This document shows positions 4,527 through 25,548 of a DNA stretch of 64,000 nucleotides, piece after piece. This DNA comes from Candidatus Latescibacterota bacterium (GTDB taxonomy: Bacteria > Krumholzibacteriota > Krumholzibacteriia > WVZY01 > JAKEHA01). Each line of letters opens with the position of its first letter. The stretch's first letter is position 1. The position numbers and the translations under genes were made by a program. The notes under the pieces are model-generated. The model made no database searches, had not been told where the DNA came from, and was given only the letters and a program-made list of their open reading frames with translations. The stretch spans positions 320,001-384,000 of the forward strand of contig OY970173.1 of assembly GCA_963707635.1 (NCBI GenBank). The letters run 5' to 3'.

Positions 4527-6782
4527 TTAGAGGAAGGATTCAGGGTCCACGTCCCAGCGAAGCTCGATCGTCCGGGTGCCCTTGCGCTTTTCGATCAGGC
4601 GCCGATACGCGCCCAGGACCGCGTCCTTGTCCGCCTGCGCGATCGGTCCCTTCAGGAGCATCTGCTCCCGGTACCGGTTCTTGACGCGCGGGATCAACGG
4701 CGCGGTCGGCCCGAGGACGACGACGCGCCGCTCGGCCAGCAGCTGCCGGCTCGCCGCCGCCCATTCTTCCATGAAGGCGTTGAGCAGCTCCGCGCTGACG
4801 GCGCTGCACGACGCCATCACGATGCGCGCGAAGGGTGGATAGTTCAGCGTGCGTCGCACCTCCAGCTCTTCGGTCATGAACGCGTCATAGTCGTGCGACT
4901 GCAGGTAGCGAAAAACCGGGTGATCGGGGCAATACGACTGGATGATGACGCCGCCCAGCGGCCCGCCTCGCCCGGAACGGCCCGCCACCTGGGTCAGCTG
5001 CTGGAAGGTGCGTTCGGCGGAACGAAAGTCGGGAAAATTGAGCCCTTCCTCCGCGCTCACCACCCCCACCAGCTCGACGCCCGGAAAATGGTGGCCCTTC
5101 GTGACCATCTGCGTCCCGAGCAGAATCGGATACTGCCCGGTGCTGAAGTCCTCCAGAATGCGGCGGTGGCCGTCCTTGCCCGCGGTGGTGTCGGCGTCCA
5201 TGCGCAGCACGGCGACGCCGGGCAGCAACGCCTTCAATTCCAGCTCGACGCGCTGGGTGCCGGTACCTGCGTAGCGGAGCTGGCGGCTTGCGCAGGTGTC
5301 GCACTGCGCGGGCGAGGCGCGCTCGTAGCCGCACAGGTGGCACTTCAGACGGTCGCCCACGCGGTGGAAGGTGAGCGAGACGTCGCAATTCTTGCACATC
5401 GCCAGCCATCCGCACGCGCTGCACTGCACGTAGCGCGCGTGCCCCCGCTTGTTGAGAAAGACGATGCTCTGCTTGCCGCTGCGAATGGTCCGCTCGAGCC
5501 GTTCGACCAGGCGCGGGGAGAGGACCGTGCCGCGCGCGTCCGGCTCGCGCATGTCGACCAGTTCGATCTCCGGCAGCGCTCCTCCGCCCACGCGCTCCGG
5601 CATGCGCGCGAGCTGGTATTTTTTCTCGAGCGCGTGGCGCAGCGATTCCGCGGACGGGGTTGCCGAACCGAGCAGCACGGTCAGCTTTTCGTTGCGTCCG
5701 CGGACCAGCGCGACGCTGCGTGCGTGATACCTCGGCTTGTCGTCCTGCTTGTACGACTCGTCCTGCTCTTCGTCCACGATGATGAGACGGAGGTCGCGCA
5801 CCGGGCTGAACACCGCCGAGCGCGGCCCCACCACCACCCGGTTCTCTCCGCGCACGATGCGCTCCCAGATCTCGAAACGTTCCGGACCGGTGAGCCGGCT
5901 GTGGATGATGGCGACGAGGTCCCCGAACACCCGCCGGTAGCGGGCGGTGGCCTGCGGCAACAGCCCGATTTCGGGCACCAGCACGATGCACCCGCCGCCC
6001 TCGTCGAGCGCGTGGCGCGCCGCGCGCAGATACACTTCCGTCTTGCCGCTCCCGGTGACGCCGTGGATCAGGGTGGGGCGAAATTCGCGCGCGCGCAGCG
6101 CGTCGACCACGGTAGCCAGCGTTCGCGTCTGCGCGCCGGTCAACTGCTCGACGCGGGTCTCCAGGCTATCGAGCGGCGACGACGACGCAACCGCGTCGAT
6201 GCGCAGCATCCCGCGCGCAACCATCCCGTCGAGAATCTCGCGCGCGTAGCCCCACTCGCCGAGCACCACCGGAACCGGCGCTTCTCCGCCGGCGCTGAGC
6301 AGCTCGGTGAGGAGGGCGAGCTGGCGCCGGGCGCGCGCCAGTGTGCGCTGCGCGGCGGCATACGCCTCGCTTCCCTCTCCGCCCGAGCGTAGCTCCAGGT
6401 TCGACACGCTCACGATCCCGGTCGGCTTCGCCGTCACCTTCGTGCGGCGGAGGCTCGGCGGGAGCACCGCCTGCACCGCCTCGCCGATGGAGCACCCGTA
6501 GTACGAAGCGATCCAGCGCGCCAGCTCGAGCAGCGTCGCCGGGAGGTAGGTCTCCTGCAGTTCTCGAATGGGACGAATGCGGGGGACATCGGCCGCTTCG
6601 GTCAGGGCGACGACCACGCCGCTCATCGCGCGCTTGCCGAAGGGAACGTCGACGCGGCAACCGACGAACACGCGCCCCGCGAGGGCGTCGGGGATCTCGT
6701 AGGTGAACGGCTGGTCGACGGGAATCGGGAGGACGACGCGCGCATAACGCGGCGTCGACGTCACCAGGAGATCAAGCGTCAT
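4527..6782 (-). CDS. priA: Primosomal protein N' (replication restart helicase)
   Basis: HGVTGSGKTEVY, LVPEIGL, IIVDEEQD, GSATPS, two Cys-rich Zn motifs, GTQMVTKGHHFP, QVAGRSGR. Confidence 0.98.
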   Translation of the reverse strand: MTLDLLVTSTPRYARVVLPIPVDQPFTYEIPDALAGRVFVGCRVDVPFGKRAMSGVVVALTEAADVPRIRPIRELQETYLPATLLELARWIASYYGCSIGEAVQAVLPPSLRRTKVTAKPTGIVSVSNLELRSGGEGSEAYAAAQRTLARARRQLALLTELLSAGGEAPVPVVLGEWGYAREILDGMVARGMLRIDAVASSSPLDSLETRVEQLTGAQTRTLATVVDALRAREFRPTLIHGVTGSGKTEVYLRAARHALDEGGGCIVLVPEIGLLPQATARYRRVFGDLVAIIHSRLTGPERFEIWERIVRGENRVVVGPRSAVFSPVRDLRLIIVDEEQDESYKQDDKPRYHARSVALVRGRNEKLTVLLGSATPSAESLRHALEKKYQLARMPERVGGGALPEIELVDMREPDARGTVLSPRLVERLERTIRSGKQSIVFLNKRGHARYVQCSACGWLAMCKNCDVSLTFHRVGDRLKCHLCGYERASPAQCDTCASRQLRYAGTGTQRVELELKALLPGVAVLRMDADTTAGKDGHRRILEDFSTGQYPILLGTQMVTKGHHFPGVELVGVVSAEEGLNFPDFRSAERTFQQLTQVAGRSGRGGPLGGVIIQSYCPDHPVFRYLQSHDYDAFMTEELEVRRTLNYPPFARIVMASCSAVSAELLNAFMEEWAAASRQLLAERRVVVLGPTAPLIPRVKNRYREQMLLKGPIAQADKDAVLGAYRRLIEKRKGTRTIELRWDVDPESFL

Positions 6783-6812
6783 GCGGTGGAGTATACACCG
6801 TGTGGGGAGGCA

Positions 6813-6905
6813 AGGTGGGATGCACTCCCTCTGCCGCCGTCCTCCCGCGCAGGTTGTTGAAATGCGCGACTGCGGATTGGCGGTGCGAGGGAGTGCATCC
6901 CACCT
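6813..6905 (+). repeat. Dispersed structured palindromic element, divergent copy D
   Basis: Perfect 19-bp outer stem aggtgggatgcactccctc / gagggagtgcatcccacct around core gtcctcccgcgcaggttgttgaaatgcgcgactgcggatt. Confidence 0.75.
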
Positions 6906-6907
6906 CG

Positions 6908-7003
6908 GGCAGGCGATATATCGGGCGAGCGCGATTTCGCGAGTCGCGCATACCAGCGTGTACGCGCGAGCGCATGAGCGCGGAGTCCGATATGTCGCCT
7001 GCC
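6908..7003 (+). repeat. Second long hairpin adjacent to copy D
   Basis: 18-bp outer stem ggcaggcgatatatcggg / tccgatatgtcgcctgcc with two G-T wobbles; inner cgcgcatac-cagc-gtgtacgcg hairpin. Confidence 0.6.
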
Positions 7004-7032
7004 GCGCACGCGCGCGAACATGGGGAAGCGAA

Positions 7033-7410
7033 CTACTTGCGAACGCCGAGGATCTCCTGGATGCGATCGATCAGGCGGCTCGGGCTGAACGGCTTCACGA
7101 TGTAATCCACCGCGCCGACCTCGTACCCCAGGCGCTTGTCGAGGTCCCGTCCCTTGGCCGTGAGCAACACCACCGGGATGTTCTTCGTGTCGGGGTCGCG
7201 TTTCAGGCGGCGGCACGTCTCGTAGCCGTCGAGGACCGGCATCATGACGTCCAGCACGACCAGGTTCGGCCGTTCTTGCTTCGCCTTTTCGATGGCGAGC
7301 TCGCCGTTGTTGGCCGTGATCACCTCGAAGCCTTCCGCGCCCAGGCTGAAATCCAGGATGTGCAGAATGTACACCTCGTCGTCGACTACCAAAATCTTCC
7401 CGAGCGCCAT
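7033..7410 (-). CDS. Single-domain response regulator (REC)
   Basis: ILVVDDE, LVVLDVMMP (phospho-Asp), LLTA, YIVKPF; 125 aa. Confidence 0.95.
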   Translation of the reverse strand: MALGKILVVDDEVYILHILDFSLGAEGFEVITANNGELAIEKAKQERPNLVVLDVMMPVLDGYETCRRLKRDPDTKNIPVVLLTAKGRDLDKRLGYEVGAVDYIVKPFSPSRLIDRIQEILGVRK

Positions 7411-7440
7411 GCCAGTCCTCCTTGCAAACGTCTCTCGCCC

Positions 7441-10400
7441 TTAGCGAACCAATGGATCGAGTTCCGCCGGTCCTTCGACCTGCGGGTACTCGCTCTGGAA
7501 TTTCTCCGCGTGCCGTTGCACCGCTGCCACGAACGCTTCGACCACCTTCGGGTCGAAGAGCGTGCCCGCGCGGTGTCGAAGCACCTCGACAGCCTCGTTC
7601 ACGCTGTATTGCTTCTGGTACGGCCGGTGCGAAATCAGCGCCCGGAACGTATCCGCCACCCGGATGATGCGCGCGTCCATCGGGATCTCGTCGCCCGACA
7701 ACTTGCCCGGGTATCCGCTGCCGTCGTAATTCTCGTGGTGGTAGAGCACGGCGTCGCGCACGCGCGGAATGAACTCGATCGGCCGGAGCATGTCCGTGCC
7801 GACGATCGTGTGCTGCTCGACGCTGAAGCGATCCTCGTGTGTCAACTCGCGCGGCTGGTTGATGATGTTCTGGCCCACCTTTGCCAGCCCGAGGTCGTAC
7901 ACGTTGAACACGTAGCGCAGGGTCGCGTTCTCCTCGGCGCTCATCCCGAGCGTCTCGGCTACGTCGCGCAGCGCGAGCGAAAGCGCGTCGGCGTTGCGAG
8001 CGTTGACGTACCGCTTGGCGTCCAGAATCGACTTGAAGGTCGAGCGGACGTCTTCGAACTCGCGCGAGCGCTCCTTGAAACGTGACAACGCGTCGAGGGC
8101 CAGCACCACGCGATCCGCGAAGAGTTCCAGCAGCGCGTGGTCCGCGTCGTCCAGGGTGTCGCGGCCGACCGGGTCGGTCACGTTGATCACGCCGACCACC
8201 CGACCGTCCTTGCGCACCGGCACCGAGAGGAACGACTTCGATTCGTAGCGGCGCACGCCGGCCACGTCGCGCAGTCGACGGTCGTGCCCGACGTCGCGCA
8301 CGAGGCAGGCGTTGTTTTCCTGCGCCACCAGCCCGGCGACGGACTCGCCCAGCTTGACTCGCGCGTGCTGCACGACGTCTTCGTCGAGGCCGATGGCGGT
8401 GTCGATGCGCAGCTCGTGGCCGTCGCCGTCGACCATCATGAGCGACGCGCGCTTGACGTTGAGCAGCTCCGCGATCAGTTCGACCACGAGTTCCATGTAC
8501 CGCTCCACCTCGAAGCGACGCGTGGGCACGTAGTCGCTCAAGAGCTCGCTGCGCACGACCGCCTGCTTCTTCGGGACCACCACCACGAAGCGCGCGCCCT
8601 TGCCGGACACGTTTTCCACCCAGATGCGGCCGTCGTGCCATTCCACGATGTTCTTGCAGATTGCCAGCCCGATGCCGGTGCCGCCGTGCCGCCGCGTCGT
8701 GCCGCCGTCCGCCTGGTGGAAATGATCGAATATCTTCTCGATCTGGTCTTCCGGAATCCCGATGCCGTTGTCCTCCACGATGATCCGCGCGCTCACGACC
8801 TCGTCTTCGAGGCGCACCCAGACCTTGCCGCCCTCGGGCGTGAACTTGGAGGCGTTGTGCAGCAAATTGATGACGAGCTGCTTCATCAGGTCGCGCTCCG
8901 CACGCACCTTGACTTCGGTCGGCGGGAGCTGCGCGTGGAGCGTGATGTGTTTGCTCTCGAAGTTCTTTTCCAGCTCGTTGGCCGCGATCGACACGATCTC
9001 GTTGAGGCTGCACGACGTGCGCTCGAAGCGCACCGCCCCGGACTCCATCTGCGAGAAGTCGAGAATGTCCTCGATCAGTGACATGAGCCGGTTGCTTTCC
9101 TCTTCGATGACGATGAGAAACTCCTTCATGATCGGCCGGTCAATCGACTCCGCGTTCCGAAGCAGGGTCTCGCAGTAGGCCTTGATGGACGTGAGCGGCG
9201 TGCGGAATTCGTGCGAGATGGTCGCCACGAAGTTCGACTTCATCTTGTTGAGCCCCGAGAGCTTTTCTGCGTATTGCTTCAGCTTCTCGTTCTTTTCCCC
9301 CACCTCGCGGTACCGGTTCAGATTGCGAATGGCGATGGTCGCCAGGGTGGAGATGGTTTCGAGCGTGTCGATGACTTCCACCACCGAGCGTTCGGGGTCT
9401 TCCGGCTCCTCGACCGAAATGTATCCAATGGTCGCCTCACCGGCGTCGTCGTCGACGAGCGGCACGATCAGGCGCTCGACATCGACCCAGTGGTCCTGCA
9501 CCAGTTCGGGCGCCCGCTCGTCTCCCGCCGCTCCCGACGCCGGGGGTGCGGCGGGCAGGAAGTAGCTCCGGCTCACGCGGAAGCGCGGCTCGATCATCAT
9601 TTCGTACTCGGCCAGCGAGATGCGGTGATTCATGACCGCGTCCTGCGCCTCGAGATTCAAGCCGACGTACGCCTTGGGCTCGAAACTCTGGGTGCGCTCG
9701 TTCAGCACGCGAATGATCACCGAATCGAATCCGAGACTTTCCCGCACCAGTTCCGCCACCATCTGCAGGAGTTCCTTCACGTTCTTGTGCTGCTGGATAC
9801 GGATGCCGATTTCTAGCATGCGCTCCAGATCTTCCACCTGCCGTCGCAGCGCGCGCGAATGGTCGTGCTGCCGGCGAATCATCGAGCTGGAGTCCTCGTA
9901 CATATCCGAAGCCACCCGGTTCAGAAGCGTCAGCTCCGCGCGCGCCTGTTCGGCCTCGCGGCCGGTGTCCTGCACCTCGTGACGCAGTCGCGAACCCAGG
10001 ACGATGTAATTCGTCTGCAGCGACAGGAGGCCCGCCACCAGCGCGAGAATGTCGGTTATCTGCGCGGCCTTGATCAGGGTGGCCGCCGAAGGGCCGCCCG
10101 CCGCGCCGGCCGCCACCACGAACAGCCACGACGCGGTGAGCGCGCTGGTCAGCACGAACAGCGCCGAGCGCACTTCCTTGCCCGCTGACCGCGCGACCAG
10201 AAAGAGCGCGCCGCTCACCCTCACCGTCGCGCCCAGCGTGATCGCGGCGAGGAATCCGAGCCAGGTGAACTTCACGCCGCTGGCCTGCGGAACCACCGCG
10301 TATGCCAGCCCGCCGATCAGGCCGAATACGACCGCCTGGTAGCGCGCGGAGCGCCATTCGTCGTAGTGCGTGCGCGGCGCCGGCGTCCCTTCTTCTTCCC

Positions 10401-10746
10401 CCGGGTGGTCCGTCTCGCGCGGCGCGCGATTCCGAGCGCGCTCAGCGTCGATACCGCGGGGAAGGCATTCGGCCGCGAGGTAGAGGCAGACCAGATTCAT
10501 CAGCACGAAGAGAAACGGCGCACCCGTGTGCTCGTTGACCATGGAGCCGGTGAACACCACCACCGCGATGCGGCTGGTGATGAATGCGAGCGTCGCGAGC
10601 GTGCGCTCGAAGAACCCGGCCGAGCTGGTGGTGATGGACTCCCGCCACAGCGTCAGCAGCACGACGGTGACGAGCACGCTGAAGAGCGCGATATAGGTGG
10701 TCGGCGAGCCGCCACCCTGGATCTGCGCAAAGAACGCCTGCGTCAT
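7441..10746 (-). CDS. Membrane hybrid signalling protein: TM region-GAF-HisKA-HATPase-GAF-HD-GYP (degenerate)
   Basis: Hydrophobic N-terminus; SHEFRTPLTSI H-box; NLLHNASKF, DNGIGI, GTGIGL; GAF (FLSVPVRKDGRVVGVINV); HHENYDGSGYP, but HD is replaced by YD. Confidence 0.9.
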   Translation of the reverse strand: MTQAFFAQIQGGGSPTTYIALFSVLVTVVLLTLWRESITTSSAGFFERTLATLAFITSRIAVVVFTGSMVNEHTGAPFLFVLMNLVCLYLAAECLPRGIDAERARNRAPRETDHPGEEEGTPAPRTHYDEWRSARYQAVVFGLIGGLAYAVVPQASGVKFTWLGFLAAITLGATVRVSGALFLVARSAGKEVRSALFVLTSALTASWLFVVAAGAAGGPSAATLIKAAQITDILALVAGLLSLQTNYIVLGSRLRHEVQDTGREAEQARAELTLLNRVASDMYEDSSSMIRRQHDHSRALRRQVEDLERMLEIGIRIQQHKNVKELLQMVAELVRESLGFDSVIIRVLNERTQSFEPKAYVGLNLEAQDAVMNHRISLAEYEMMIEPRFRVSRSYFLPAAPPASGAAGDERAPELVQDHWVDVERLIVPLVDDDAGEATIGYISVEEPEDPERSVVEVIDTLETISTLATIAIRNLNRYREVGEKNEKLKQYAEKLSGLNKMKSNFVATISHEFRTPLTSIKAYCETLLRNAESIDRPIMKEFLIVIEEESNRLMSLIEDILDFSQMESGAVRFERTSCSLNEIVSIAANELEKNFESKHITLHAQLPPTEVKVRAERDLMKQLVINLLHNASKFTPEGGKVWVRLEDEVVSARIIVEDNGIGIPEDQIEKIFDHFHQADGGTTRRHGGTGIGLAICKNIVEWHDGRIWVENVSGKGARFVVVVPKKQAVVRSELLSDYVPTRRFEVERYMELVVELIAELLNVKRASLMMVDGDGHELRIDTAIGLDEDVVQHARVKLGESVAGLVAQENNACLVRDVGHDRRLRDVAGVRRYESKSFLSVPVRKDGRVVGVINVTDPVGRDTLDDADHALLELFADRVVLALDALSRFKERSREFEDVRSTFKSILDAKRYVNARNADALSLALRDVAETLGMSAEENATLRYVFNVYDLGLAKVGQNIINQPRELTHEDRFSVEQHTIVGTDMLRPIEFIPRVRDAVLYHHENYDGSGYPGKLSGDEIPMDARIIRVADTFRALISHRPYQKQYSVNEAVEVLRHRAGTLFDPKVVEAFVAAVQRHAEKFQSEYPQVEGPAELDPLVR

Positions 10747-10773
10747 GTCGTACCGCCGTGCCCGTCGCTGCGC

Positions 10774-13700
10774 CTACGGCGCGCCCACCGGCGTCGCGTT
10801 CAACCGGCGCCGGTAGTCGCGCTCGTCCCGGGTCGAAAGCTTGCCGTCTTCCTTCAGCACAGCGATGAAGGCCTCGACCACGTCGCGATCGAACTGCGCG
10901 CCGGCGTTATCGACCAGTTCCTGCAGCGCCTGCTCGACCGTGCGGCGCTCCTTATAGGGTCTCCCGACCGTCATCGACTGGAACGCGTCGATCACCGCGA
11001 GAATGCGCGCACCCATCGGGATCTCATCGCCCTTCAAGCCCATCGGGTACCCCTGCCCGTCCCAACGCTCGTGGTGATACAGAATGATATTGCTCACCGC
11101 TTCGACGAATTCGAGCGGCCGGATCAACTCGGCGCCGCGCTCGGGATGGCGCTGGATCGCGCGCCGCTCCTCGGAGGTCAGATTCAGCGCCTTGTTGAGG
11201 ATGTCGTCGCTGATCTCGGTCATGCCGATGTCGTGCACACTGGCCACGTACTGGACCACGCTCACGTCCTTTTCGGACAGGTGGAGCTTGCGCGCGATCT
11301 TGACCGCGCTGTCCACCGCCTGCTCGATGACCTTGGTCTTGGTCTGCGTTTCGAGCATGCGCTTGAATGCTTCGATCGTGTCCTGCAGGAAGGTGTGCGA
11401 GTCTTCCACCACCCGCACGCGCTCCAGCGCGCGCGAGATGCGCTCGCTGAACGAGATCAGCAGGTTGAGGTCGTCGTGGTCGAACGGGTTCCCGTTGGTC
11501 TTGTTGTTCACATTGATGACCCCGACGATCACGTCGTTCACCCGCAGCGGCACGCTCAACAGGGAAACGGTCTCGTACTGCGGGTTGTTGGGCGCGCTGT
11601 AGATGTCGTTCTCCTCGATGTTGGCGATCAGCAGGGGCTCACCGCGCTCGGCCACCTTGCCCGCGATTCCGTACCCCACTTTCACGCGGGTGTTCTCGAC
11701 CACCCACTCGTCCAGGCCGAACGACATCTTGATGAACAGCTCGGACCGTGACTTGTCGAGCAGCATGAGCGACACCCGGCGCGCGTTCAGCAGCTCGGCG
11801 ATCATGCGCACGATCAGTTCGAGCATTTCGTGCAGCTGCTCTCTCGCGTCGACGACCTCCCCGATGTAGCCGATGAGGTCGTTGAAGCAGTGCTCGCGCG
11901 GCAGCGTGAAATAGAAGGTGCTGCCCGCGCCTTCCTTGCTCTCCGCGCGGACGGTGCCGCCGTGCTGCTCCACGATGTTCTTCACGATCGCGAGCCCGAG
12001 GCCGAGCCCTTCCATCGTGGATTGCTTCTGCTGGCGCGCGCGGAAGTACTTGTCGAACACGCTGCCCAGCTCGTCCTCCGGAATGCCCATCCCCTGATCC
12101 GCGATCGCCACCACGATGTTCACCGCTTCCTCGCGCGCGCGCACCGTCACCGTGGTCCCGCGCGGCGAGTACTTGATCGCGTTCGAGATCAGGTTGATGA
12201 ACACCTGTTTGATCAGATCCGGGTCGCCTTCGATGCGCGGCAGGTCGGAAGCGATCTGGACCGACAAGGCCACCCCGTTTTCGCGCAGCGCGGGGTCCAG
12301 CATGGACACGACATCGTCGACCACCGCGTGGAGGTCCATCGGGGCGCGCGTCAGCGGGCGCTGCCCGAACTCGATCTTCGACACGTCGAGGATGTCGTTG
12401 ACGATGCGAATCAGCCGGTTCGTCTCTTTGTTCACGATGTCCAGGAACTCGTGCTTGTGCTCGAAGCCGGGGTCGTTGATGTTGTCGACGAGCGTTTCCA
12501 CGTACGCCTTGATCGAAGTCAGCGGCGTGCGCAACTCGTGCGACACGTGGTTGACGAAGTCGGATTTGAGAATGCTCGTCTTCTGGAGCATGTCGACCTG
12601 CCGGTCCATGTCGCGGATCTTGCGTTCCAGCGAGTCGTAGAGGCGGCTCTTCTCGATCGCCACCGAGAGCTGCTGACTCAGCGTCGTTAGGAGGCGCATG
12701 TGTGCGTCGGTAGCGGCTTTAGGAGCGAAGTCGCCGACGTAGATCACGCCGACCACTTGCTTGCCGGTCGAGAGCGGAAAGGCGACCAGGGAGCGAATGC
12801 CGAAGCGCTGCAGCACGTCGCTGCAGTTGGCGCGGCGATCGCGTTGCGTGTCTTCCACGACGATCGGCGTATTGTGGGTCCAGATCCATTCGTTGAGGCC
12901 GCCGCGGCGCATGCGCTTGTCGAGCTTGATGTCGCGATTCTGGTTGAGCCCGACGAACACCGAATGCACGACCTCCTGCTTCTGGTTGAACAGGACGATG
13001 CTCGCCCACGGGCGCTCGACCAGCAGCGTGGCTTCCTTGGCCACGATCTTGAGCAGGGTCTCGAGCGACATCGCGGCGTTGATGCCCGTGCTGATGTCGT
13101 AGAGGCGGGCCAGTTCGTTGATCCGGTTCTCGGACTCCTCGCGCTTCTTGCGCAGCCGTTCCAGGGAGACATTCATCCGGTCCTGGAACGCGTGGGAGAG
13201 GAAGATGACGAGGCTGACAAACGCGCCCATCACCAGTAGCGAGCCCGCCAGGTAGTGCCCGTTTTGATAGACGCCCGGGGCGCTCCGGTACACGGTGAAG
13301 TGCTGGATGCTCCCGTCCATTTCCAGGAAGCCGAGCAGACCGATCGACGCCAGCGACGCCGAGACGAAGCAGGCGACCGTCACCTTCCACGGGAAGGTAT
13401 TGCACACGAGGAACAGAGGGATCGTGAGCATGAACAGGAACGGGCTCTCGATCGTGCCGGTGCAGTGGATGAGCGCGATCACCGCCGCGAGGTCGACGTA
13501 GCTCGAATACCACAGCAACGCGGAGCTCTTGCGCAGCTTGCTCCAGCCGAACCGCTCGCCGACCGTTTCCCACAACCACTCCCCGCTGTACTGGAGGAAT
13601 GCGGCGACGAGGAACAGGCCCACCAGCAAATCCGTGCGGTACGTGAAATCGCCGAGGTATCGTGCCGCAAACACGATCCCGAAGAAGGCGAACAACTCGA

Positions 13701-13779
13701 CGAATCTCAAATACAGAATGCTCAACGGACTCGACTCCAACGCCCGGGGGCTCGGGTCCCAGGCAAAATCGCGGGTCAT
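10774..13779 (-). CDS. Membrane hybrid signalling protein: TM region-GAF-HisKA-HATPase-GAF-HD-GYP
   Basis: TM helices; GAF; SHELRTPLTSI; NLISNAIKY, DQGMGI, GLGLGL; GAF; VHDIGM...HHERWDGQGYP. ATG at 13779 overlaps the upstream stop. Confidence 0.9.
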   Translation of the reverse strand: MTRDFAWDPSPRALESSPLSILYLRFVELFAFFGIVFAARYLGDFTYRTDLLVGLFLVAAFLQYSGEWLWETVGERFGWSKLRKSSALLWYSSYVDLAAVIALIHCTGTIESPFLFMLTIPLFLVCNTFPWKVTVACFVSASLASIGLLGFLEMDGSIQHFTVYRSAPGVYQNGHYLAGSLLVMGAFVSLVIFLSHAFQDRMNVSLERLRKKREESENRINELARLYDISTGINAAMSLETLLKIVAKEATLLVERPWASIVLFNQKQEVVHSVFVGLNQNRDIKLDKRMRRGGLNEWIWTHNTPIVVEDTQRDRRANCSDVLQRFGIRSLVAFPLSTGKQVVGVIYVGDFAPKAATDAHMRLLTTLSQQLSVAIEKSRLYDSLERKIRDMDRQVDMLQKTSILKSDFVNHVSHELRTPLTSIKAYVETLVDNINDPGFEHKHEFLDIVNKETNRLIRIVNDILDVSKIEFGQRPLTRAPMDLHAVVDDVVSMLDPALRENGVALSVQIASDLPRIEGDPDLIKQVFINLISNAIKYSPRGTTVTVRAREEAVNIVVAIADQGMGIPEDELGSVFDKYFRARQQKQSTMEGLGLGLAIVKNIVEQHGGTVRAESKEGAGSTFYFTLPREHCFNDLIGYIGEVVDAREQLHEMLELIVRMIAELLNARRVSLMLLDKSRSELFIKMSFGLDEWVVENTRVKVGYGIAGKVAERGEPLLIANIEENDIYSAPNNPQYETVSLLSVPLRVNDVIVGVINVNNKTNGNPFDHDDLNLLISFSERISRALERVRVVEDSHTFLQDTIEAFKRMLETQTKTKVIEQAVDSAVKIARKLHLSEKDVSVVQYVASVHDIGMTEISDDILNKALNLTSEERRAIQRHPERGAELIRPLEFVEAVSNIILYHHERWDGQGYPMGLKGDEIPMGARILAVIDAFQSMTVGRPYKERRTVEQALQELVDNAGAQFDRDVVEAFIAVLKEDGKLSTRDERDYRRRLNATPVGAP

Positions 13780-14606
13780 GGCCGCACTCCCTCCGGCTCC
13801 CCTCCCGGTGAGAGTGGCAACGTAACGAACACCGTCGTCCCCTTGCCCGCCTCGCTGCGCACGGACACTTCGCCGTCGCACATATCGACCAGGCTCCGAA
13901 CCAGGGTCAGCCCCAGTCCCGAGCCGCGGGTTTTTCCTTCTTCCAATCTGACAAACGGCATGAAGATCCGCTTCACGTCTTCCGGCGCGATGCCCTCGCC
14001 CTGGTCGATCACGCGCAGCTTGAGCAGCTCACGGTCGCCCGGCCCGCGCTGGTCGCGCCCCACCTCCGCCTCGATTCGCACCGCGGTCGAGGCGCTGGAG
14101 TAGTTGAGCGCGTTTTCGACCAGGTTCAGCACGATCATCTTGAGCGCGTTTCGATTCACCGGCGCGGGCGGCAGCGCGTTGCCGGAGACGATGCGCACGC
14201 GCGCCCGGCCGCCGAGTGTGCGCGGGAGGTGTTCGATCGCCTCGTCGATCACTTCCACGACGTCGACCTTCTCGGCCGCCGGCGTTCCCGCCGCGCCGTC
14301 CACCTTGAGCAGGTCCAGAAAGAACGTATTGAGCTCGTCGAGGAGCTCGCACTCGCCCCGCGCCTTTTCGATGTACGCCGTCGCGTCGGTGAGCCCCGCT
14401 TTGGCCACGTCGTCCCGCGCGATCTCCAGGTAGCCCGCGATCGCGGTGGTCGGCCGCCGAATCTCGTGGCCCATCACCAGGCGTGTCGACGCCATGATGC
14501 GCCGGTAACGCTCGAGCCGCGCGCGCAGCTGGTTCGCCTCGATGCGCGCGTCGTTCAGGAGCGCTTCGAGGACCGCCGTTTTGTCTTCCGCCGTTCGGAT
14601 GTTCAT
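13776..14606 (-). CDS. Cytoplasmic histidine kinase without a sensor domain
   Basis: Short coiled coil, then GHEIRRPTTAI, NLVENALNY, DQGEGI, GSGLGL. Confidence 0.88.
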   Translation of the reverse strand: MNIRTAEDKTAVLEALLNDARIEANQLRARLERYRRIMASTRLVMGHEIRRPTTAIAGYLEIARDDVAKAGLTDATAYIEKARGECELLDELNTFFLDLLKVDGAAGTPAAEKVDVVEVIDEAIEHLPRTLGGRARVRIVSGNALPPAPVNRNALKMIVLNLVENALNYSSASTAVRIEAEVGRDQRGPGDRELLKLRVIDQGEGIAPEDVKRIFMPFVRLEEGKTRGSGLGLTLVRSLVDMCDGEVSVRSEAGKGTTVFVTLPLSPGGEPEGVRP

Positions 14607-14633
14607 GTTTTTCGTCCCCGCGCCGCCCCGGCG

Positions 14634-15614
14634 TCAGCCGGCCTCGCGCGTCCGCGACGGGTGCACGCCGTCCTGCCGGCGCTCCTTCACCACCACGCTG
14701 CCTTCGATCCGCTTGCCGTATTCCTTGAGGCTCGTCGCGATGTCGTTCACCTCTGCGAAGTGTTCGATCTGGTTGTCGGTGCTCTTCACCAGCGCGATCG
14801 TGACCGCCATTACCGGGATCTTCTTCAGCTCGCCCTGGCGATCGCGGATCTCGAGGTAGCCGCGCTTGACGTCCTTGGGGTCGAGCTTCATCAGCGAGCC
14901 GCGGTCGAACTCGTCGACCACGTACTGCGCCATGATTTCCGCGCGCGACGGCGTGGCCACCAGCACGAAGTCGTCGCCGCCGATGTGGCCGATGAAGTCG
15001 TCCTTGCCGCCGAGCTTTTCGATCGTGCGCCGCAGGATGTCGGCCAGAAAGCCGATGATCTCGTCACCCTTCTGGTAGCCGTAGTAGTCGTTGAAGCCCT
15101 TGAAGTTGTCGATGTCGATATACAGAAACGCGAACTGCTTCTTCTGCGCGATGCGCGCGATCATCTCGCGCTCGATCGCGGTGTTCCCGGGCAGACCGGT
15201 GAGCGGATTGGCTTCCTTCTGACGGATGTTCCACTCGAGCACATTCTTGACGCGCAGCAGGAGTTCCTCGTTCGAGTAGGGCTTGACCAGGTAGTCGTTC
15301 GCGCCGCCCTCGAGCCCCGCGACGCGATCGCGCTGCTCGCCGCGGGCGGAGAGCATGATCACGGGAATCTGGTTCAACGAGAAATCCTGTCGCATTTTGC
15401 GACACACCTCGTAGCCATCGACCTTCGGCATCATCACATCGAGCAGCACCAGATTGGGCTTCAGCTCGGCCGCCTGTTTCAGCGCATCCTCCCCGTCGGA
15501 CGCCAGATACACCTGGTAGCCCGCACGCTCGAGTGTGAAGCGCAGGATCTGCCGGATGTGCGGCTCGTCGTCGGCAATGAGGATGCGATAGCTCGAGTTC
15601 TCGGGTGCGTGCAT
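14634..15614 (-). CDS. Response regulator with GGDEF-family diguanylate cyclase domain
   Basis: REC (ILIADDE, LLDVMMP, YLVKPY), NPLTGLPGN, DIDNFKGFNDYYG, HIGGDDF. Confidence 0.92.
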   Translation of the reverse strand: MHAPENSSYRILIADDEPHIRQILRFTLERAGYQVYLASDGEDALKQAAELKPNLVLLDVMMPKVDGYEVCRKMRQDFSLNQIPVIMLSARGEQRDRVAGLEGGANDYLVKPYSNEELLLRVKNVLEWNIRQKEANPLTGLPGNTAIEREMIARIAQKKQFAFLYIDIDNFKGFNDYYGYQKGDEIIGFLADILRRTIEKLGGKDDFIGHIGGDDFVLVATPSRAEIMAQYVVDEFDRGSLMKLDPKDVKRGYLEIRDRQGELKKIPVMAVTIALVKSTDNQIEHFAEVNDIATSLKEYGKRIEGSVVVKERRQDGVHPSRTREAG

Positions 15615-15669
15615 GTCGGCCCGTGCTGTCGAACGTGAACTGCTGAAAACACTTATCCCACTTCGGACG

Positions 15670-15686
15670 GGCAAGGAACATGCCAA
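15670..15686 (-). promoter_or_regulatory. sigma54 (-24/-12) promoter for the five-gene signalling operon
   Basis: Minus strand TTGGCATG-TTCC-TTGCC with correct GG-N10-GC spacing, about 55 nt upstream of the ATG. Confidence 0.65.
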
Positions 15687-15831
15687 GGGTTCCCGCCCCT
15701 CGCGGAGCGTGAGGGTGCGACGACGAACCGCTCGCTTGCACGATCCGCGCCGGGGAATCGCGGTCGGCGCGCCGCGCTACGACGCGGAATGAGCAGGAAT
15801 CATGGAGAGCTAGAGGGAGCGATCGGAAACG

Positions 15832-16842
15832 TCAGTCCACCCACGAGACAATCGCCCCGCGGGTGAAAACGTCGAGAGAGAGGCCGTGGTCACGCCCCGA
15901 CGAGATCAGGATCTCCGCCGTGCGCGCGACCATCGCCCCGTTGTCCGTGCAGTACTCGAGCAACGGCGCGTGATAGGAAATCCCCGCCGCCTCGCACGCG
16001 GCCTGCATGGCCGCGCGCAGCGGGCGGTTCGCCGCCACGCCGCCGGCGAGGTACGCGTGGCGAACACCACGCTCCCTCGCGCACGCGACCGTCCGGTCGA
16101 CCAGCACGTCGACGATCGCCGCCTGCGCCGAGGCCGCCACGTCGGCGACGTCGCGAGAGGTCAGCGCCGGGCGCGCGTCCACGTACTGCCGCACCGCGGT
16201 CTTCAAGCCAGAGAACGAGAAATCGAACCCGTCGCGGCCGAGCATCGCGCGCGGGAAATCGATGGCGCGCGGGTCGCCGGTTTCGGCCACGCGTTGCACC
16301 GCGGGACCGCCCGGAAAGCCCAGGCCAAGGAGTTTCGCGATCTTGTCGAATGCTTCTCCCGCCGCGTCGTCGCGCGTCCCGCCCGCCAGCTGGTAGCGGC
16401 CGACGCGCTCGACGTAATAGAGAGACGTGTGTCCACCCGAAACCACCAGCACCACGCACGGAGTCTGGAGCGCGTCGCCCTGCAGCTCGTTCGAGAGGAC
16501 GTGGGCTTCTATGTGGTGCACGCCCACCACCGGCTTCTCGAGACCGAGTGCCAGCGACTTCGCGAAGCCGACGCCGACCAGGAGCGATCCCACCAGCCCG
16601 GGCCCGTTGCTGACACCAATGCCGGCGAGGTCGCCGCCCTCCAACCCCGCGCGGGCCAGCAGCGCGTCGTAGACCGAGAGCAGCGTGCGCATGTGCTGGC
16701 GCGACGCGATCTCCGGCACGACGCCGCCGTACTCTTCGTGGATCAGCTGGCTCGCGGTGAGATTGGCGAGCACGCCGCGGCCGCGCGCATAGAGCGCGAG
16801 CGACGTGTCGTCGCATGACGTTTCGATGCCGAGCACGATCAT
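15832..16842 (-). CDS. tsaD: tRNA N6-adenosine threonylcarbamoyltransferase
   Basis: LGIETSCDDT, YGGVVPEIASRQH, HHIEAH, SGGHT, DDAAGEAFDK, FSFSGLKT, CTDNGAM. Confidence 0.98.
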   Translation of the reverse strand: MIVLGIETSCDDTSLALYARGRGVLANLTASQLIHEEYGGVVPEIASRQHMRTLLSVYDALLARAGLEGGDLAGIGVSNGPGLVGSLLVGVGFAKSLALGLEKPVVGVHHIEAHVLSNELQGDALQTPCVVLVVSGGHTSLYYVERVGRYQLAGGTRDDAAGEAFDKIAKLLGLGFPGGPAVQRVAETGDPRAIDFPRAMLGRDGFDFSFSGLKTAVRQYVDARPALTSRDVADVAASAQAAIVDVLVDRTVACARERGVRHAYLAGGVAANRPLRAAMQAACEAAGISYHAPLLEYCTDNGAMVARTAEILISSGRDHGLSLDVFTRGAIVSWVD

Positions 16843-16865
16843 GGGATGGGCCGCCTGCGCAGCGG

Positions 16866-17248
<383 letters not shown>

Positions 17249-17279
17249 GTGCTAATGTTGTTTGAACCTGCCCCGAACT

Positions 17280-20200
17280 ATGAGCGACACCCTCCACCAG
17301 AAGCTCCGCGAGATCGTCGAGGACGTCCACGAGGACCTGATGCGCTCGCTCGTGGACGCGCCGCCGCCTGAGCGCAAGGCCGCGCGGTCGCCGTTCGAGA
17401 CGCGCCTCGCCGCGTGCGGCTTCGGCGCTTCAGCGTCCACCGTCACGAGTTTCCGCGGCGCGTGCGTTCGCATGCTCGCCGCCGATCTCGGCGACGAGGC
17501 GGTGGTCGAAATCGTCGAGGCGTGCCGGCGGAGCGCGGCGCCCGACGCCGCCATTCGAAACCTCGAGCGCTATCTCGAGAACACCACCAACCCGTCGATC
17601 TTCCTGCGCACGATGCTGGCCGCCCCGCCGGTGCTCCATCTGGTCACGACCGTGTTCAGCACCAGCCAGCACCTGGCCGACATCCTGGTGCGCCAGCCCG
17701 GTTTCGTGTACTGGCTCATGGAGCAACAAACCTGGGACACGCCCGACACCGTCGAAAGCTACGAGGCCTGGCTCGCGGCCGAGGTGGACCGCTTTCGCAC
17801 GGTGGAAGGCAAGCTCAACGCGGTGCGACGCACGCACCGCCAGGCGCTGCTCAAGATCGGCGTGCTCGACACGGTGAGCGGCGCGCCGGTCGAAGAAGTC
17901 ACGCGGCGCTTGAGCGAGCTGGCCGACGCGTGCGCACGCACCGTGCTCGAGATCGTGGTGGACGAGATCGCGGGCGACGACACCTTCCCGCGCGCGCTGG
18001 CCATAATCGCCCTGGGCAAGCTCGGCGGCCTCGAACTCAATTACAGCAGCGACATCGACTTGATCTTCGTTTCCGAGCACACGGACGACGAGACGATGCA
18101 TCATTACATTCGGGTCGCGCGCCGCTTCACCGACGCCGTGTCCGCGTTGACCGACGAGGGGTATCTCTATCGCGTCGACCTGCGACTGCGCCCCGACGGC
18201 AAGGCGGGCCCGCTGGTCAACTCCGAGGATTCGCTTCGCATCTACTACGAGAACCGCGGTCGCCCGTGGGAGTTTCAGGCGCTCCTGAAGGCGCGCACGA
18301 TCGCGGGCGACCTCGCGCTGGGCGCGCGCGTGCTGGAATCGCTGGCCAAGCTCGTCTACAGCACCACGCTTCCCTACTCGCCGCTCGAAGCGGTCGGCGC
18401 CATGCGCGACCAGATCAAGGACAACGTGCCCGCCAACCAACGGGGCCACAACATCAAGCTCATGAGCGGCGGGATCCGCGACGTCGAATTCGTCGCCCAG
18501 GCGATGCAGCTCATGCACGCGCACACCCACGCCGAACTGCGCACGCCGACCACGCTGGTCGCGCTGTCGAGGCTCCGCCAACTCGGGCTCATGAAGGAGT
18601 GGGACGTCGACAACCTCGCGGCCGCGTATCGATTCTTTCGCCTGGTCGAGCACCGGTTGCAGATGATGCACCAGCTGCAGACCCACACGCTCCCCGACTC
18701 GGACGCCGAGATCGTGCTGCTCGCGCGCCGCGTGTCCAACGGGCCGCTCGGGACGTTCACCGCGGATTCGTTCGTCGAGACGCTCTCGAAGCATCTGAAT
18801 AATGTGCGGACGTTCGCCGATAGTTTCTTCGCGGGCGAAGCCATTCACCCGCACTCGGTCCTGCTCATGCTCCCCGAGGACAGCGAGCGCGCGGTGAGCA
18901 TCCTCTCGCCGTACGGGTTCTCCGACGTGGGGCGCGCCACCCGCACGCTCCACGCGATGGCGTACGGGTCGTTTCCGCGCCTGCTCGACCGGCGTGCGCG
19001 CGCCGCCTTCGAAGCGCTGCTGCCGCATTTGCTCGCCGAGGTCGCGGCCATGGGGGACCCCGACCTGGCGCTCGTCAACATCGCCCAGATCTCCGCCGCC
19101 GAGAAGAGCGAGGCGGCGTTCTATCGGATGCTCGCCGACTCGGCGGCCGCGCGGCGACTGCTGGTCGGTCTCGCGGGGATGTCGTCGCTCTTGACCCGCG
19201 AGCTGTGCGCCCAGATCGGCGCCCTGGACTCGCTGGTAGAGGGAGGCGGCGAGTTGGACGCCGCGGTCGACGCGATGCTGACCGATGTTCCCGAATGGGA
19301 GCGATTCTCCGCACGGGAGGCCGTGGTTCGCGGAGGCACTGCGGCCGCGACCGACCGCCAGGCCCGCCAATGCCAGTGGGTCGAGCGGCTGCGCCTCTAC
19401 GCCTTCGGAGAAGCCCTGCACCGGCGGTTCCATCGCGGCCCGCACGGGTTGACCGGCGAGGTCGCCCGCGCGCACGGCGCGCGTTTACACATGGCCGCCG
19501 CGTTCGACGAGATGGTCCCCGAGAAGGAGCGCGTGGCGGTCTTCGCCCTCGGTTCGTACGGAGTCGGCGAGCCGCGCATCACCAGCGACCTCGACCTCGT
19601 CGTGGTCGCCGACGGCGTCGACCTTCCCGACCTGATGCAGCGCGTGCAGGTCATCAATCAGTGGTTCACCGATGGGCGCATTCTCAAGCTCGATTTTCGC
19701 CTGCGCGCGGAAGGCGCGAGTGCCCCGCTGGTCCAGGATCTCGCGTTCTACGAGGACTACTTTCGCGCGCGCGCGTCGCTCTGGGAGCGGGTGGCGTTTG
19801 CCAAGTGCGCGCCCTGGTGGGGCGGCGAAGAAATCAAGCGCGCGTTCATGCGCAAGCTCCGCGCCTTCGTCGCGCGGCCGTTCTCACCGGACGAGATCGC
19901 GCGGCTGGCGGAGGTGCGCCGGTCGGTTGAACACATTGCTCCGCGGCATTTTTCGGAGTGGGACACCAAGCGCTCCGCCGGCGGCCGTTACGACATCGAG
20001 TACCTGACCGCGCTCGGCATGGCCGCGACCTGCGCGGACCGGCTGGACTATTTCACGATGAGCACGCGCGAGCGCATCGACGCGCTGGTGGGGACGGGAT
20101 TCGTGTTTGCCGACCACGGGGTCGCGCTGCGCGATGCGGTCGACCAGTTCACCCTGGTCGAGCACGTCATGGAGCTGCAGGAGATGACGCACCCCGGGAA

Positions 20201-20348
20201 TGAAGAGAAGGCTGCGTACCTGGCGCACTACATGAATCGGACTTTCGAGTTGATCGGCGCGGGCCCGGAACCGGTGGCCCATCGCCTGCGCGCCGCGAAG
20301 GCGGGCGTGCGCAAAGCATTCTCCGAACGCTTCAAAGCCGCCGGATAA
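17280..20348 (+). CDS. glnE: Bifunctional glutamine synthetase adenylyltransferase/adenylyl-removing enzyme
   Basis: LGKLGGLELNYSSDIDLIF, YRVDLRLRPDG, WEFQALLKAR, GGIRDVEF; second nucleotidyltransferase domain SDLDL, LDFRLRAEG. Confidence 0.93.
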   Translation: MSDTLHQKLREIVEDVHEDLMRSLVDAPPPERKAARSPFETRLAACGFGASASTVTSFRGACVRMLAADLGDEAVVEIVEACRRSAAPDAAIRNLERYLENTTNPSIFLRTMLAAPPVLHLVTTVFSTSQHLADILVRQPGFVYWLMEQQTWDTPDTVESYEAWLAAEVDRFRTVEGKLNAVRRTHRQALLKIGVLDTVSGAPVEEVTRRLSELADACARTVLEIVVDEIAGDDTFPRALAIIALGKLGGLELNYSSDIDLIFVSEHTDDETMHHYIRVARRFTDAVSALTDEGYLYRVDLRLRPDGKAGPLVNSEDSLRIYYENRGRPWEFQALLKARTIAGDLALGARVLESLAKLVYSTTLPYSPLEAVGAMRDQIKDNVPANQRGHNIKLMSGGIRDVEFVAQAMQLMHAHTHAELRTPTTLVALSRLRQLGLMKEWDVDNLAAAYRFFRLVEHRLQMMHQLQTHTLPDSDAEIVLLARRVSNGPLGTFTADSFVETLSKHLNNVRTFADSFFAGEAIHPHSVLLMLPEDSERAVSILSPYGFSDVGRATRTLHAMAYGSFPRLLDRRARAAFEALLPHLLAEVAAMGDPDLALVNIAQISAAEKSEAAFYRMLADSAAARRLLVGLAGMSSLLTRELCAQIGALDSLVEGGGELDAAVDAMLTDVPEWERFSAREAVVRGGTAAATDRQARQCQWVERLRLYAFGEALHRRFHRGPHGLTGEVARAHGARLHMAAAFDEMVPEKERVAVFALGSYGVGEPRITSDLDLVVVADGVDLPDLMQRVQVINQWFTDGRILKLDFRLRAEGASAPLVQDLAFYEDYFRARASLWERVAFAKCAPWWGGEEIKRAFMRKLRAFVARPFSPDEIARLAEVRRSVEHIAPRHFSEWDTKRSAGGRYDIEYLTALGMAATCADRLDYFTMSTRERIDALVGTGFVFADHGVALRDAVDQFTLVEHVMELQEMTHPGNEEKAAYLAHYMNRTFELIGAGPEPVAHRLRAAKAGVRKAFSERFKAAG

Positions 20349-20375
20349 GCGGCTGCATGAGGCACGCCGCGCGGG

Positions 20376-23052: not shown

Positions 23053-23093
23053 ACGGTCAGTCTAATGGAGATGGGCGGTTCCGGGAAGCGATG

Positions 23094-24540
23094 TCATGGC
23101 GGCGTGCCGCGGTACAGAGTCAACGTCGCCGTCGCCAACGGGACGATTTCCATCGCCGCCGTGTCCACGCGCGGACACGGACCCGCCTTCACCACCGCGA
23201 ACTCGTGCGCCTCGGTCCCGGCGTCCAGGGCGATGTGATAGTAGCGATAGAAGTAGCCGTGCAACGACCAGTCGCGTTGCATCGACTCGCACACGGTGAC
23301 GGTTTCGTGCGCCGGCACGACGGTCGCGATCAGTTTGACGTCTTGAATCGTGGTCGCATTTCGGCCCACCGTTCCCCACCGCGTGGCCGAGTAGACGACG
23401 ACCACCGCCAGCAGGAGCGCCGATATGATTGCAAAGGCGCGGAAGCGCCGCCCGTGCTCGTCGATTCCTTCCACGAACCGCGACACGATGGGCGCAACGA
23501 TCAGCGCAAAGCCACTGGCAAACAGGGGAAACGACGGCACCAGGTAGAATCCCGACTGGCGCGGACTCAACGCAATCGGCAGCGATCCCGCGGCGCCCAC
23601 TGCCAGACACAACAGCCCCGTCTTGAACGTGACCGCGCCCACGACCGGGACCCGCCCCTTGAGCCGGTTGAGAATGAGCAGCAGCCCACACACGCCCGCG
23701 ATTGGCGCCAGTTCGCTCGCCAGCTTTACAACGACGCCGAACCGGTTCGGCACCGAGCCGCGCGTGCCCGCGAGACTCGGTGCGAGCTGGGCGGAGATGT
23801 AGTGGGCAATATTGTGGAACGCGTTGCGGTCGATCAGCACCACCGCCACCATCGCCGTCACCGTCACCGTCAAGAGCACCGTCGAGCCCACCGCCGTTCG
23901 CAACGACAGGTCACGCCGGATCCACCACGCGAGCAGGAGGAGCGAAATCGGAAACAGCGCGACCAGTCCCTTGCTGAACAGCCCGGCGGCAATCAGAACC
24001 GCCGCGAGCCGCCAGTACCGCAATCGACGCCGGCTGGCAACGCCGCCGACCAGGGCCGCGCACGCCCCGGTCGTGAAGATGGAGAGCGTGTTCTCGAGCA
24101 TGTTGTTCGAGTACGACCACGTGACCAGCGGGATCGCGGCCCAGAACAGCACCGGCAGCCACGCGAAGGGCCGGAGAGGGGGCGCAGCCTCGGTGAGCCG
24201 GCGCCACAACAAAACGATCATCGCGCCCGTCACGATGGCAGTGAACAGCGAGTAGAGGTTCTCGACGAAGAGTTGATCCCCGAAAATCTTGAAGAACAGG
24301 GACTGAATGCCGAACACGAGCGGCGGGTGATCGGAAAAGAAGTCCGGCGTGAGCGTCGGCGTGAGGATTGGCTTCCAGAAGGTGCCGATGCCTTCGGCCA
24401 GGTTTCGCGAGATGACACTATAAAGGAGGCCGTCGAGGAACATGCCCTTCATCGACCAGCCGTGGCAGCGTCGGCGCGAGAAAGAGGGCGACCGCGAGCA
24501 GCCAGAAGGGAAAGTGACGTCCGGGGGAAGGCGTGTTCAC
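23094..24540 (-). CDS. ArnT/PMT-like (GT-C) membrane glycosyltransferase; apparent frameshift near 24453
   Basis: GMFLDGLLYSVISRNLA, FSDHPPL, NMLEN, SKG and many TM helices; the N-terminal helix (FPFWLLAVALFLAPTLPRLV, from GTG 24540) is one base out of frame. Confidence 0.8.
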
Positions 24541-24578
24541 GCCGGCATTCTAAGCCAGGGATCCGGTCGTTCGCAAAG

Positions 24579-25427: not shown

Positions 25428-25491
25428 AGAGCTTACTCACCGATCCCATCGCGACGCAATGTCGTCGAGTTGTCTGCGAGATCCACAACGC

Positions 25492-25524
25492 AGAACGGGC
25501 CGGCACGAGGCGCCGACCCGTTCT
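25492..25524 (-). terminator. Hairpin downstream of glnA (possible terminator)
   Basis: agaacggg-c-cggc / gccg-a-cccgttct inverted repeat 25 nt after the stop; no clear U-tract. Confidence 0.4.
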
Positions 25525-25548
25525 CATCGTGCACCACGTCGCTCTTCT

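Follow-up and report, generated by a model that had tools for sequence, protein, structure and literature searches.

Two membrane-bound histidine kinases ending in degenerate HD-GYP domains, probably receptors or pseudo-enzymes, in a conserved operon of Krumholzibacteriota

What does an HD-GYP domain do when it forms the tail of a histidine kinase? This question is raised by five adjacent genes in a 64,000-nucleotide stretch (the window) of contig OY970173.1, positions 320,001 to 384,000, from assembly GCA_963707635.1 of Candidatus Latescibacterota bacterium, which GTDB places in the Krumholzibacteriota. The original prediction, made from the letters of the window, described a receiver joined to a GGDEF-family domain (REC-GGDDF below), a small kinase with no sensor, two large kinases in which a membrane part, GAF, HisKA and HATPase are followed by a second GAF and an HD-GYP domain (hybrids 1 and 2), and a single receiver (REC). 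Pfam searches confirmed this set of five genes and its domain layout. The prediction went on to read the locus as a self-contained phosphorelay in which the kinases carry their own domain for handling cyclic di-GMP (c-di-GMP). What it did not include is that both HD-GYP domains are degenerate, and this feature underlies the interpretation that follows.

Both tails have the HD-GYP fold and the GYP motif (HD_5, E 1e-39 and 3e-37). We compared 52 hybrid-1 and 61 hybrid-2 copies from the phylum, 113 in total, with the enzyme PmGH, whose residue numbering was taken from papers and placed by means of four intact HD-GYP proteins of this genome. As a control, these four proteins retained every residue compared. 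In the tails, Lys225 was replaced by Met, Leu or Ile in 113/113 copies, hybrid 1 having Met in 52/52, and the same Lys was lost in 226/226 database homologues and in 47/47 representatives with the full span. Position 221 was His in 52/52 hybrid-1 copies and Tyr in 61/61 hybrid-2 copies (YD for HD). His189 was found in 1/113, Asp308 in 6/113 and Asp183, whose column is gappy, in 1/113. Alanine at His189, His221, Asp183 or Lys225 is reported to abolish PmGH activity, with a similar result for D308A (PMC4159591). Conversely, Asp222, His250, His276, His277, Gly284 and Pro286 were kept in 113/113 copies, Asp305 in 112/113 and the GYP Tyr285 in 111/113, and position 317 was basic or Gln in 112/113. 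Thus, among the metal ligands His189, His221, Asp222, His250, His276, His277 and Asp305, the first was lost in both hybrids and the second in hybrid 2, the other five being kept. We take His250, His276 and His277 to be the G-site, and PmGH captured intact c-di-GMP with only its G-site iron remaining. Judged from sequence, this pattern is a selective loss of catalysis in which one metal site and the phosphate-binding Tyr are kept, and not decay. Loss of catalytic residues, combined with retention of a metal site and the GYP motif, makes the tails likely receptors that tune kinase and phosphatase output. They are probably receptors or pseudo-enzymes and not phosphodiesterases, and the database names 'HD domain-containing phosphohydrolase' and 'c-di-GMP phosphodiesterase class II' are probably wrong for the hybrids.

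An AlphaFold2 model of the kinase-to-HD part of hybrid 2 (predicted local distance difference test 82; predicted template modelling score 0.62) matched HK853, whole PmGH and ligand-bound DvhD, and its HD-GYP part matched 4MCW, 4R8Z and 9RBZ. The comparison with the bound form of DvhD, a proven dead HD-GYP receptor whose stalk helices are reported to splay on binding (PMC13090378), gave Z 20.1 and a root mean square deviation of 2.5 Å over 175 residues. The C-terminal half of the model matched whole PmGH with Z 24.0 over 338 residues at a deviation of 18 Å, the domains being differently oriented. In the model a 47-residue helix precedes the HD-GYP domain.

The kinase cores of the hybrids appear intact. 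The phosphoacceptor His, Glu+1, Thr+4, Thr+7, Ala+11 and Tyr+12 were present in 110/110 parsed copies, and the N, G1 and G2 boxes are intact. The small kinase also has intact N, G1 and G2 boxes and keeps the His and Glu, but carries Lys or Arg at H+4 in 32/32 parsed homologues; no transmembrane segment was found by hydropathy, and its HisKA match lies below the Pfam curated cut-off. Thr or Asn at H+4 is needed for phosphatase activity and not for kinase activity (PMC3510030), and the small kinase is predicted to be a kinase that has no phosphatase activity. Since the receiver-contact residues of the dimerization and histidine phosphotransfer domain (Thr+7, Ala+11 and Tyr+12) are identical in the hybrids and the first helix is similar in both operon receivers, the hybrids would share their receivers; Ala+11 and Tyr+12 are common to one of the genome's other kinases. 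The operon encodes no kinase-fused receiver and no histidine phosphotransfer protein, the latter not having been searched for elsewhere in the genome, and we therefore describe the locus as a branched two-component circuit and not a phosphorelay.

The expected product of the REC-GGDDF protein is c-di-GMP. Its active-site motif, predicted as GGDEF, is the non-canonical GGDDF and departs from GG[D/E]EF; GGDDF together with a guanine-type Asp at the specificity position was found in 57/58 homologous open reading frames, one being unparsed. The residues D37, D39, K42, N45 and D54 (metal Asp, Lys, Asn and guanine-binding Asp) were invariant in 48/48. The RxxD inhibitory site (I-site) was found in 0/57 REC-GGDDF homologues. 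One GGDDF enzyme has been reported active and another, PA3258, inactive (PMC8835794). From these residues c-di-GMP synthesis is likely, as the prediction had it. Production of cyclic GMP-AMP (cGAMP) by the operon's own cyclase was ruled out, the specificity position being Asp and not Ser or Thr in 57/57 parsed homologues.

The membrane domains of the two hybrids gave different results. That of hybrid 1 scored 13.1 bits against PF25323 (PilS) and its homologues up to 26.6, the cut-off being 27; one copy reached 27.1 bits when neighbouring stretches were included. Against the PilS membrane domain of the phylum, hhalign returned 87% (E 4e-6), versus 2.3% against a single sequence. The domain thus resembles that of PilS in profile-profile comparison only. 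The membrane domain of hybrid 2 had no Pfam match, and its Atlas matches to MASE3 and HisKA_7TM, with scores <0.9, are leads only. The first GAF of hybrid 2 also had no Pfam match and was assigned by position and by likeness among homologues.

With moderate confidence we propose that the hybrids change between kinase and phosphatase action on both receivers when nucleotide binds to their tails, in a loop on the I-site-less cyclase for which the small kinase is the phosphate source. Each tail would retain one metal ion and a nucleotide pocket and would bind the messenger uncut; the stalk helix between GAF and HD-GYP would relay binding to the kinase core, much as the stalk of DvhD splays. The hybrids, with Thr at H+4, would be bifunctional and would oppose the phosphate supplied by the small kinase. 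Phosphorylated REC-GGDDF would make c-di-GMP and, having no I-site, would be limited by this loop. The weakest step concerns the host's order, in which c-di-GMP would be the preferred ligand of hybrid 1 (RxxK/R) and 3',3'-cGAMP, supplied by the genome's candidate Hypr-type synthase, may be that of hybrid 2 (RxxQ). Type IV pilus or surface behaviour would be the likely output, given the shared sigma-54 regulon and the PilS-like membrane domain of hybrid 1. The predicted feedback through the kinases' own c-di-GMP-handling domain is plausible, and the cyclase has no I-site; the tails themselves are probably not phosphodiesterases. The circuit is not self-contained, because the single REC has no output domain, the sigma-54 activator is encoded elsewhere, and four of the five GGDEF proteins of the genome lie outside the operon.

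Inactive HD-GYP proteins can also work through protein contact, as is reported for HnoD and RpfG, and Lysobacter RpfG binds hybrid kinases (PMC8463545). The dead tails could accordingly serve for docking, keeping the cyclase, a phosphodiesterase or the partner kinase in a complex, with nucleotide binding absent or incidental, and the variation of the guanine-reading RxxK motif between families would suit such a role. We consider this unlikely: docking leaves unexplained the strict retention of the pocket-lining His250, His276, His277, Asp222, Asp305 and GYP Tyr, and REC-GGDDF persists with no adjoining hybrid in 4/5 tested genomes of two families. A complex prediction with both HD-GYP domains and the GGDDF domain scored 0.00, which is evidence neither way.

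Several observations weigh against the proposed switch. Hybrid 1 retains six of the eight PmGH metal ligands (His221, Asp222, His250, His276, His277 and Asp305, each in 52/52 copies), and RpfG is reported to tolerate the loss of His189, so residual or different catalysis is possible; moreover, the columns of Asp183, Glu185 and His189 sit in a gappy region of the alignment. The base-reading Arg314 is Gly in 20/61 hybrid-2 copies and Lys or Gln in 10/52 hybrid-1 copies, a looser constraint on the pocket than a universal receptor would be expected to show. Strict retention of metal ligands, unlike in DvhD, could mean a metal-based role, and a GGDDF protein can be inactive, as PA3258 is. The six ligands and the replaceable His189 would fit with at least hybrid 1 being a metal-dependent hydrolase, slow or acting on another substrate (pGpG, another nucleotide or a phospho-protein), in which kinase and enzyme output share a sensor. 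This is distinctly unlikely in our judgement, since Lys225 is Met throughout hybrid 1 and lost in all homologues, K225A or D183A kills PmGH activity, and the genome already has several intact HD-GYP enzymes. Very unlikely is a mononuclear metal or redox sensor whose site occupancy or oxidation, and not nucleotide, regulates the kinase: the invariant residues are mostly metal ligands, nucleotide-contact positions vary and HD-GYP activity depends on the oxidation state of iron (10.1101/2021.11.05.467447), but the GYP Tyr that binds ligand phosphate and the basic residue or Gln at 317 are kept almost throughout, and the hybrids share an operon with a cyclase.

Under the proposed nucleotide switch, the two tails may read different messengers. 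HD-GYP enzymes selective for cGAMP are marked by Rxx(Q/N) where others have Rxx(K/R) (10.1101/600031; 10.1101/2021.11.05.467447). Hybrid 2 has RxxQ in 18/18 copies from the host's order and in 0/43 from other families, which have RxxR/K in 23 and GxxR/K in 20; hybrid 1 has Lys or Arg at position 317, the c-di-GMP mark, in 51/52. The genome encodes a GAF-GGDEF protein with Ser at the specificity position, the Hypr signature (PMC6456294). This type of gene was found in 75/151 phylum genomes, with Ser plus GGDEF in 31/31 loci read and a sigma-54-like site ahead of it in 24/29 loci, 21 of them at a consistent distance; the largest family has it in 3/61 genomes, the three with the best hybrid 1 scores. 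One of the genome's eight HD-GYP domains is intact with RxxQ, a candidate cGAMP phosphodiesterase. Its orthologue occurs in 24/25 genomes of the host's order and in 5/125 others, the motif residue over 30 loci being Q in 15, N in 2, K/R in 9 and unparsed in 4. Hypr signalling is not mentioned for this phylum in the literature searched.

Speculatively, the pair could be a two-messenger comparator: hybrid 1 would read c-di-GMP, hybrid 2 would read 3',3'-cGAMP made by the Hypr enzyme, each through a mono-metal pseudo-phosphodiesterase domain, and with both acting on the same receivers, the ratio of the two messengers would set a phosphorylation output for pilus-based surface behaviour. We consider this extension unlikely. 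The RxxQ rule was drawn from active enzymes, of which 3/6 tested appeared selective (10.1101/600031); in our tree the RxxQ of hybrid 2 arose once, on the branch to the host's order, and its carriers are kin and not independent cases. The candidate cGAMP phosphodiesterase has RxxQ in 14/15 parsed copies of the host's family and in only 1/6 of the sister family, where K/R prevails. Families in which hybrid 2 has GxxR or RxxR also commonly hold the Hypr gene, and one family that gave no hybrid match has it in 4/5 genomes. A phylum-wide link between RxxQ and the Hypr gene was rejected, Hypr being far more widespread. The effectors named for Hypr-cGAMP are riboswitches (PMC10118264), and a search of the genome for the c-di-GMP-I riboswitch (RF01051) gave 0 matches, as did the control genomes, which makes this negative uninformative. 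If the comparator is real, the Hypr-cGAMP pathway, whose named effectors are riboswitches, would have a protein-kinase receptor in hybrid 2.

The prediction called the kinase-GAF-HD-GYP layout unusual, and it proved to be conserved across the phylum. The kinase-to-HD part was matched in 136/151 phylum genomes (E <= 1e-60), with 0/5 genomes in one family and 4/10 in another. Homologues at 77-83% identity carry the NCBI name Candidatus Krumholzibacteria, and the Atlas cluster is mostly Krumholzibacteriota. We read 60 loci, picked for holding matches and so not a random sample. The exact five-gene order was found in 33/37 loci of five families. In two other families the small kinase was absent from 23/23 loci, which have a second single REC instead, and 8 of these 23 also have no hybrid 1. 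Conservation of the gene neighbourhood holds for the first group and fails for the small kinase in the second. Receivers shared by the hybrids fit their identical contact residues, but the third kinase of the predicted circuit is not universal. Families with no hybrids can retain REC-GGDDF and REC ahead of priA. The single REC is 52-97% identical over 20 loci compared. The predicted paralogy of the two hybrids from kinase to HD holds, one quoted motif reading ELV and not ELI in hybrid 2. In a quick tree, made with no clade test, hybrids 1 and 2 formed separate supported clades whose family branching was broadly mirrored, and the duplication thus predates the sampled families.

In a search of 1.84 billion representatives (50%-identity clusters), 47 of the best 150 matches span kinase to HD-GYP; among 20 representatives looked up, two clusters are named Eisenbacteria and two Nitrospirota. 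Metagenome contig L266 shares the gene order; it holds a single full hybrid and, in addition, an intact HD-GYP. A scan of the collection found a kinase-plus-HD reading frame in 2/80 loci but was saturated with generic kinase motifs and so gives no range beyond the phylum. Soluble GAF-HisKA-HATPase-GAF-HD-GYP relatives (P0263, P0291, P0307; L260-L264, L267), two clusters of which are named Nitrospirota, match HATPase more weakly (E 2e-6 to 2e-17), lie beside other genes and are possibly pseudokinases. We found no paper on a kinase-GAF-HD-GYP fusion in the literature searched, although Table 3 or the supplements of a survey of HD-GYP architectures may list one.

All five genes lie on the minus strand between tsaD and priA (Table 1). 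In order of transcription they are separated by 27 nt, a 4-nt overlap, 27 nt and 30 nt, with 217 nt from tsaD to the operon and 250 nt from the operon to priA, and co-transcription is inferred from this spacing. The predicted sigma-54-like promoter was borne out. The motif lies 56 nt ahead of the first ATG; a matching site was present upstream in 55/57 related loci, one of the two misses being a contig end, versus 104/2000 random windows; the genome contains 33 such motifs, versus 5 and 8 in two Markov simulations; and rpoN is present. A search of positions 6500-17300 for sigma-70-type promoters found 0 versus 1.2 expected. The likeliest start of the REC-GGDDF protein is ATG 15614, since TTG 15686 falls within the promoter and the alignments with homologues open at the Met of ATG 15614; for hybrid 1 the likeliest start is ATG 13779.

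Sigma-54 motifs are likewise found ahead of the pilin gene (pilA), pilM, the pilB(MshEN)-pilT-pilC-pilS-pilR region and a minor pilin gene, as well as other HD-GYP clusters and the Hypr gene. The pilus locus holds pilB-MshEN, a pilT-like gene, pilC, pilS, pilR, pilin, an ABC transporter, and pilM to secretin. A role in surface motility is suggested by this shared sigma-54 company. Bdellovibrio gliding is controlled by Hypr-made cGAMP (PMC9140294). Elsewhere in the genome, a third degenerate HD-GYP domain (C1:737208-739020, plus strand; L211:11238-13019; motifs RDIGM and RPTR) has the same Lys-to-Met change and adjoins an intact REC-HD-GYP gene in a sigma-54 cluster. A further reading frame behind a sigma-54 motif (C1:2323881-2325341, minus strand; L212:5881-7398) has no Pfam match at E 1e-5; its start resembles the MglA GTPase.

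Table 1. Positions of the operon, its flanking genes and related features. Plain numbers are window positions; C1 and L designate our own contig and locus entries.
Feature	Position	Strand	Basis
Sigma-54 (-24/-12) motif, TGGCAT-N5-TTGC	15671..15685	-	Motif match; sites in related loci; rpoN
REC-GGDDF, 326 aa, Asp59 acceptor, predicted diguanylate cyclase	14634..15614	-	Pfam, homologues
Small sensor-less HisKA-HATPase kinase, 276 aa, His47, Arg at H+4	13776..14606	-	Pfam
Hybrid 1, 1001 aa: PilS-like membrane domain-GAF-HisKA(His414)-HATPase-GAF-degenerate HD-GYP	10774..13779	-	Pfam, alignment, hhalign
Hybrid 1 HD-GYP motifs	HDIGM 11235-11221; RPYK 10962-10951	-	Alignment
Hybrid 2, 1101 aa: ~7 transmembrane segments-GAF-like-HisKA(His512)-HATPase-GAF-degenerate HD-GYP	7441..10746	-	Pfam, hydropathy, AlphaFold2
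Hybrid 2 HD-GYP motifs	YDLGL 7899-7885; RPYQ 7626-7615	-	Alignment
Single-domain response regulator, 125 aa, Asp54	7033..7410	-	Pfam
priA, conserved downstream neighbour, outside circuit	4527..6782	-	Pfam, locus comparison
tsaD, conserved upstream neighbour, outside circuit	15832..16842	-	Pfam, locus comparison
GAF-GGDEF with Ser at specificity position and GGDEF, candidate Hypr synthase	G000 C1:2060347-2061384 (L039)	-	Sigma-54 site ahead
Intact HD-GYP with RxxQ, candidate cGAMP phosphodiesterase	C1:1146817-1148328 (L048:826-2337)	+	Second gene after sigma-54 site
Complete type IV pilus locus with four sigma-54 motifs	C1:2248000-2266000 (L208/L209)	-	Gene content

Other parts of the window drew attention in their own right. 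A nitrogen-control cluster (P-II, glnE, a glnD-like gene and glnA; 16866-27261) lies directly upstream, and in about one-third of the 60 loci P-II adjoins either tsaD or the operon. Positions 40827-45872 (minus strand) encode a 1681-aa sensor histidine kinase whose N-terminal part is very long and unannotated, and a 1129-aa reading frame at 35349-38738 (minus strand) has no NCBIfam match at E 1e-25 and lies in a region of strong AT skew.

The known systems that come closest each share part of this design. Among the HD-GYP proteins PmGH (GAF-HD-GYP; 4MCW) and the RpfG family, PmGH aligns in whole with the C-terminal half of the hybrid 2 model, but it has no kinase and is an active tri-iron enzyme, whereas the hybrids have lost Lys225, His189, Asp183 and mostly Asp308. 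PilS senses pilin; the genome has its own pilS-pilR-pilA, and hybrid 1 differs in having GAF in place of PAS and no sigma-54 activator as partner. The Hypr-cGAMP pathway, with the synthases GacA and Bd0367 and the RxxQ phosphodiesterase PmxA, has candidate counterparts here in the Ser/GGDEF protein, the intact RxxQ HD-GYP and the RxxQ of hybrid 2, and the two hybrids, one with RxxK and the other with RxxQ, form a natural pair with which to ask if Hypr-made cGAMP is read by proteins as well as by riboswitches.

DvhD of Desulfovibrio vulgaris (9RBZ/9RC0), with the layout dCache-TM-PAS-dead HD-GYP, is likewise anchored in the membrane and carries its non-catalytic HD-GYP domain on a helical stalk, and it binds c-di-GMP (99 nM) and cGAMP (501 nM) (PMC13090378). 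It lacks a kinase, its signal goes to a periplasmic protease, and its metal ligands are gone (SQ, MN), whereas the hybrids are fused to a kinase and keep one metal site; they have neither the dCache-TM-PAS layout nor a metal-free site, and no LapG-like protease is encoded in the operon. SgmT of Myxococcus xanthus (GAF-kinase-REC-GGDEF; PMC3509222) also uses a C-terminal domain of a c-di-GMP enzyme family as receptor and is linked to behaviour that depends on type IV pili, but there the GGDEF receptor sequesters a single orphan kinase spatially, with a fused REC and a DNA-binding partner. CckA of Caulobacter crescentus, a bifunctional HisKA kinase, is turned to phosphatase mode by c-di-GMP (PMC5026420), the switch that we propose for the hybrids, but the ligand binds the kinase core and there is no HD-GYP domain. 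By analogy, the hybrids are likely SgmT- or CckA-like in their working and built on a DvhD-like domain; they would add an HD-GYP enzyme domain turned into the built-in sensor of a kinase, a new form of second-messenger control over two-component signalling.

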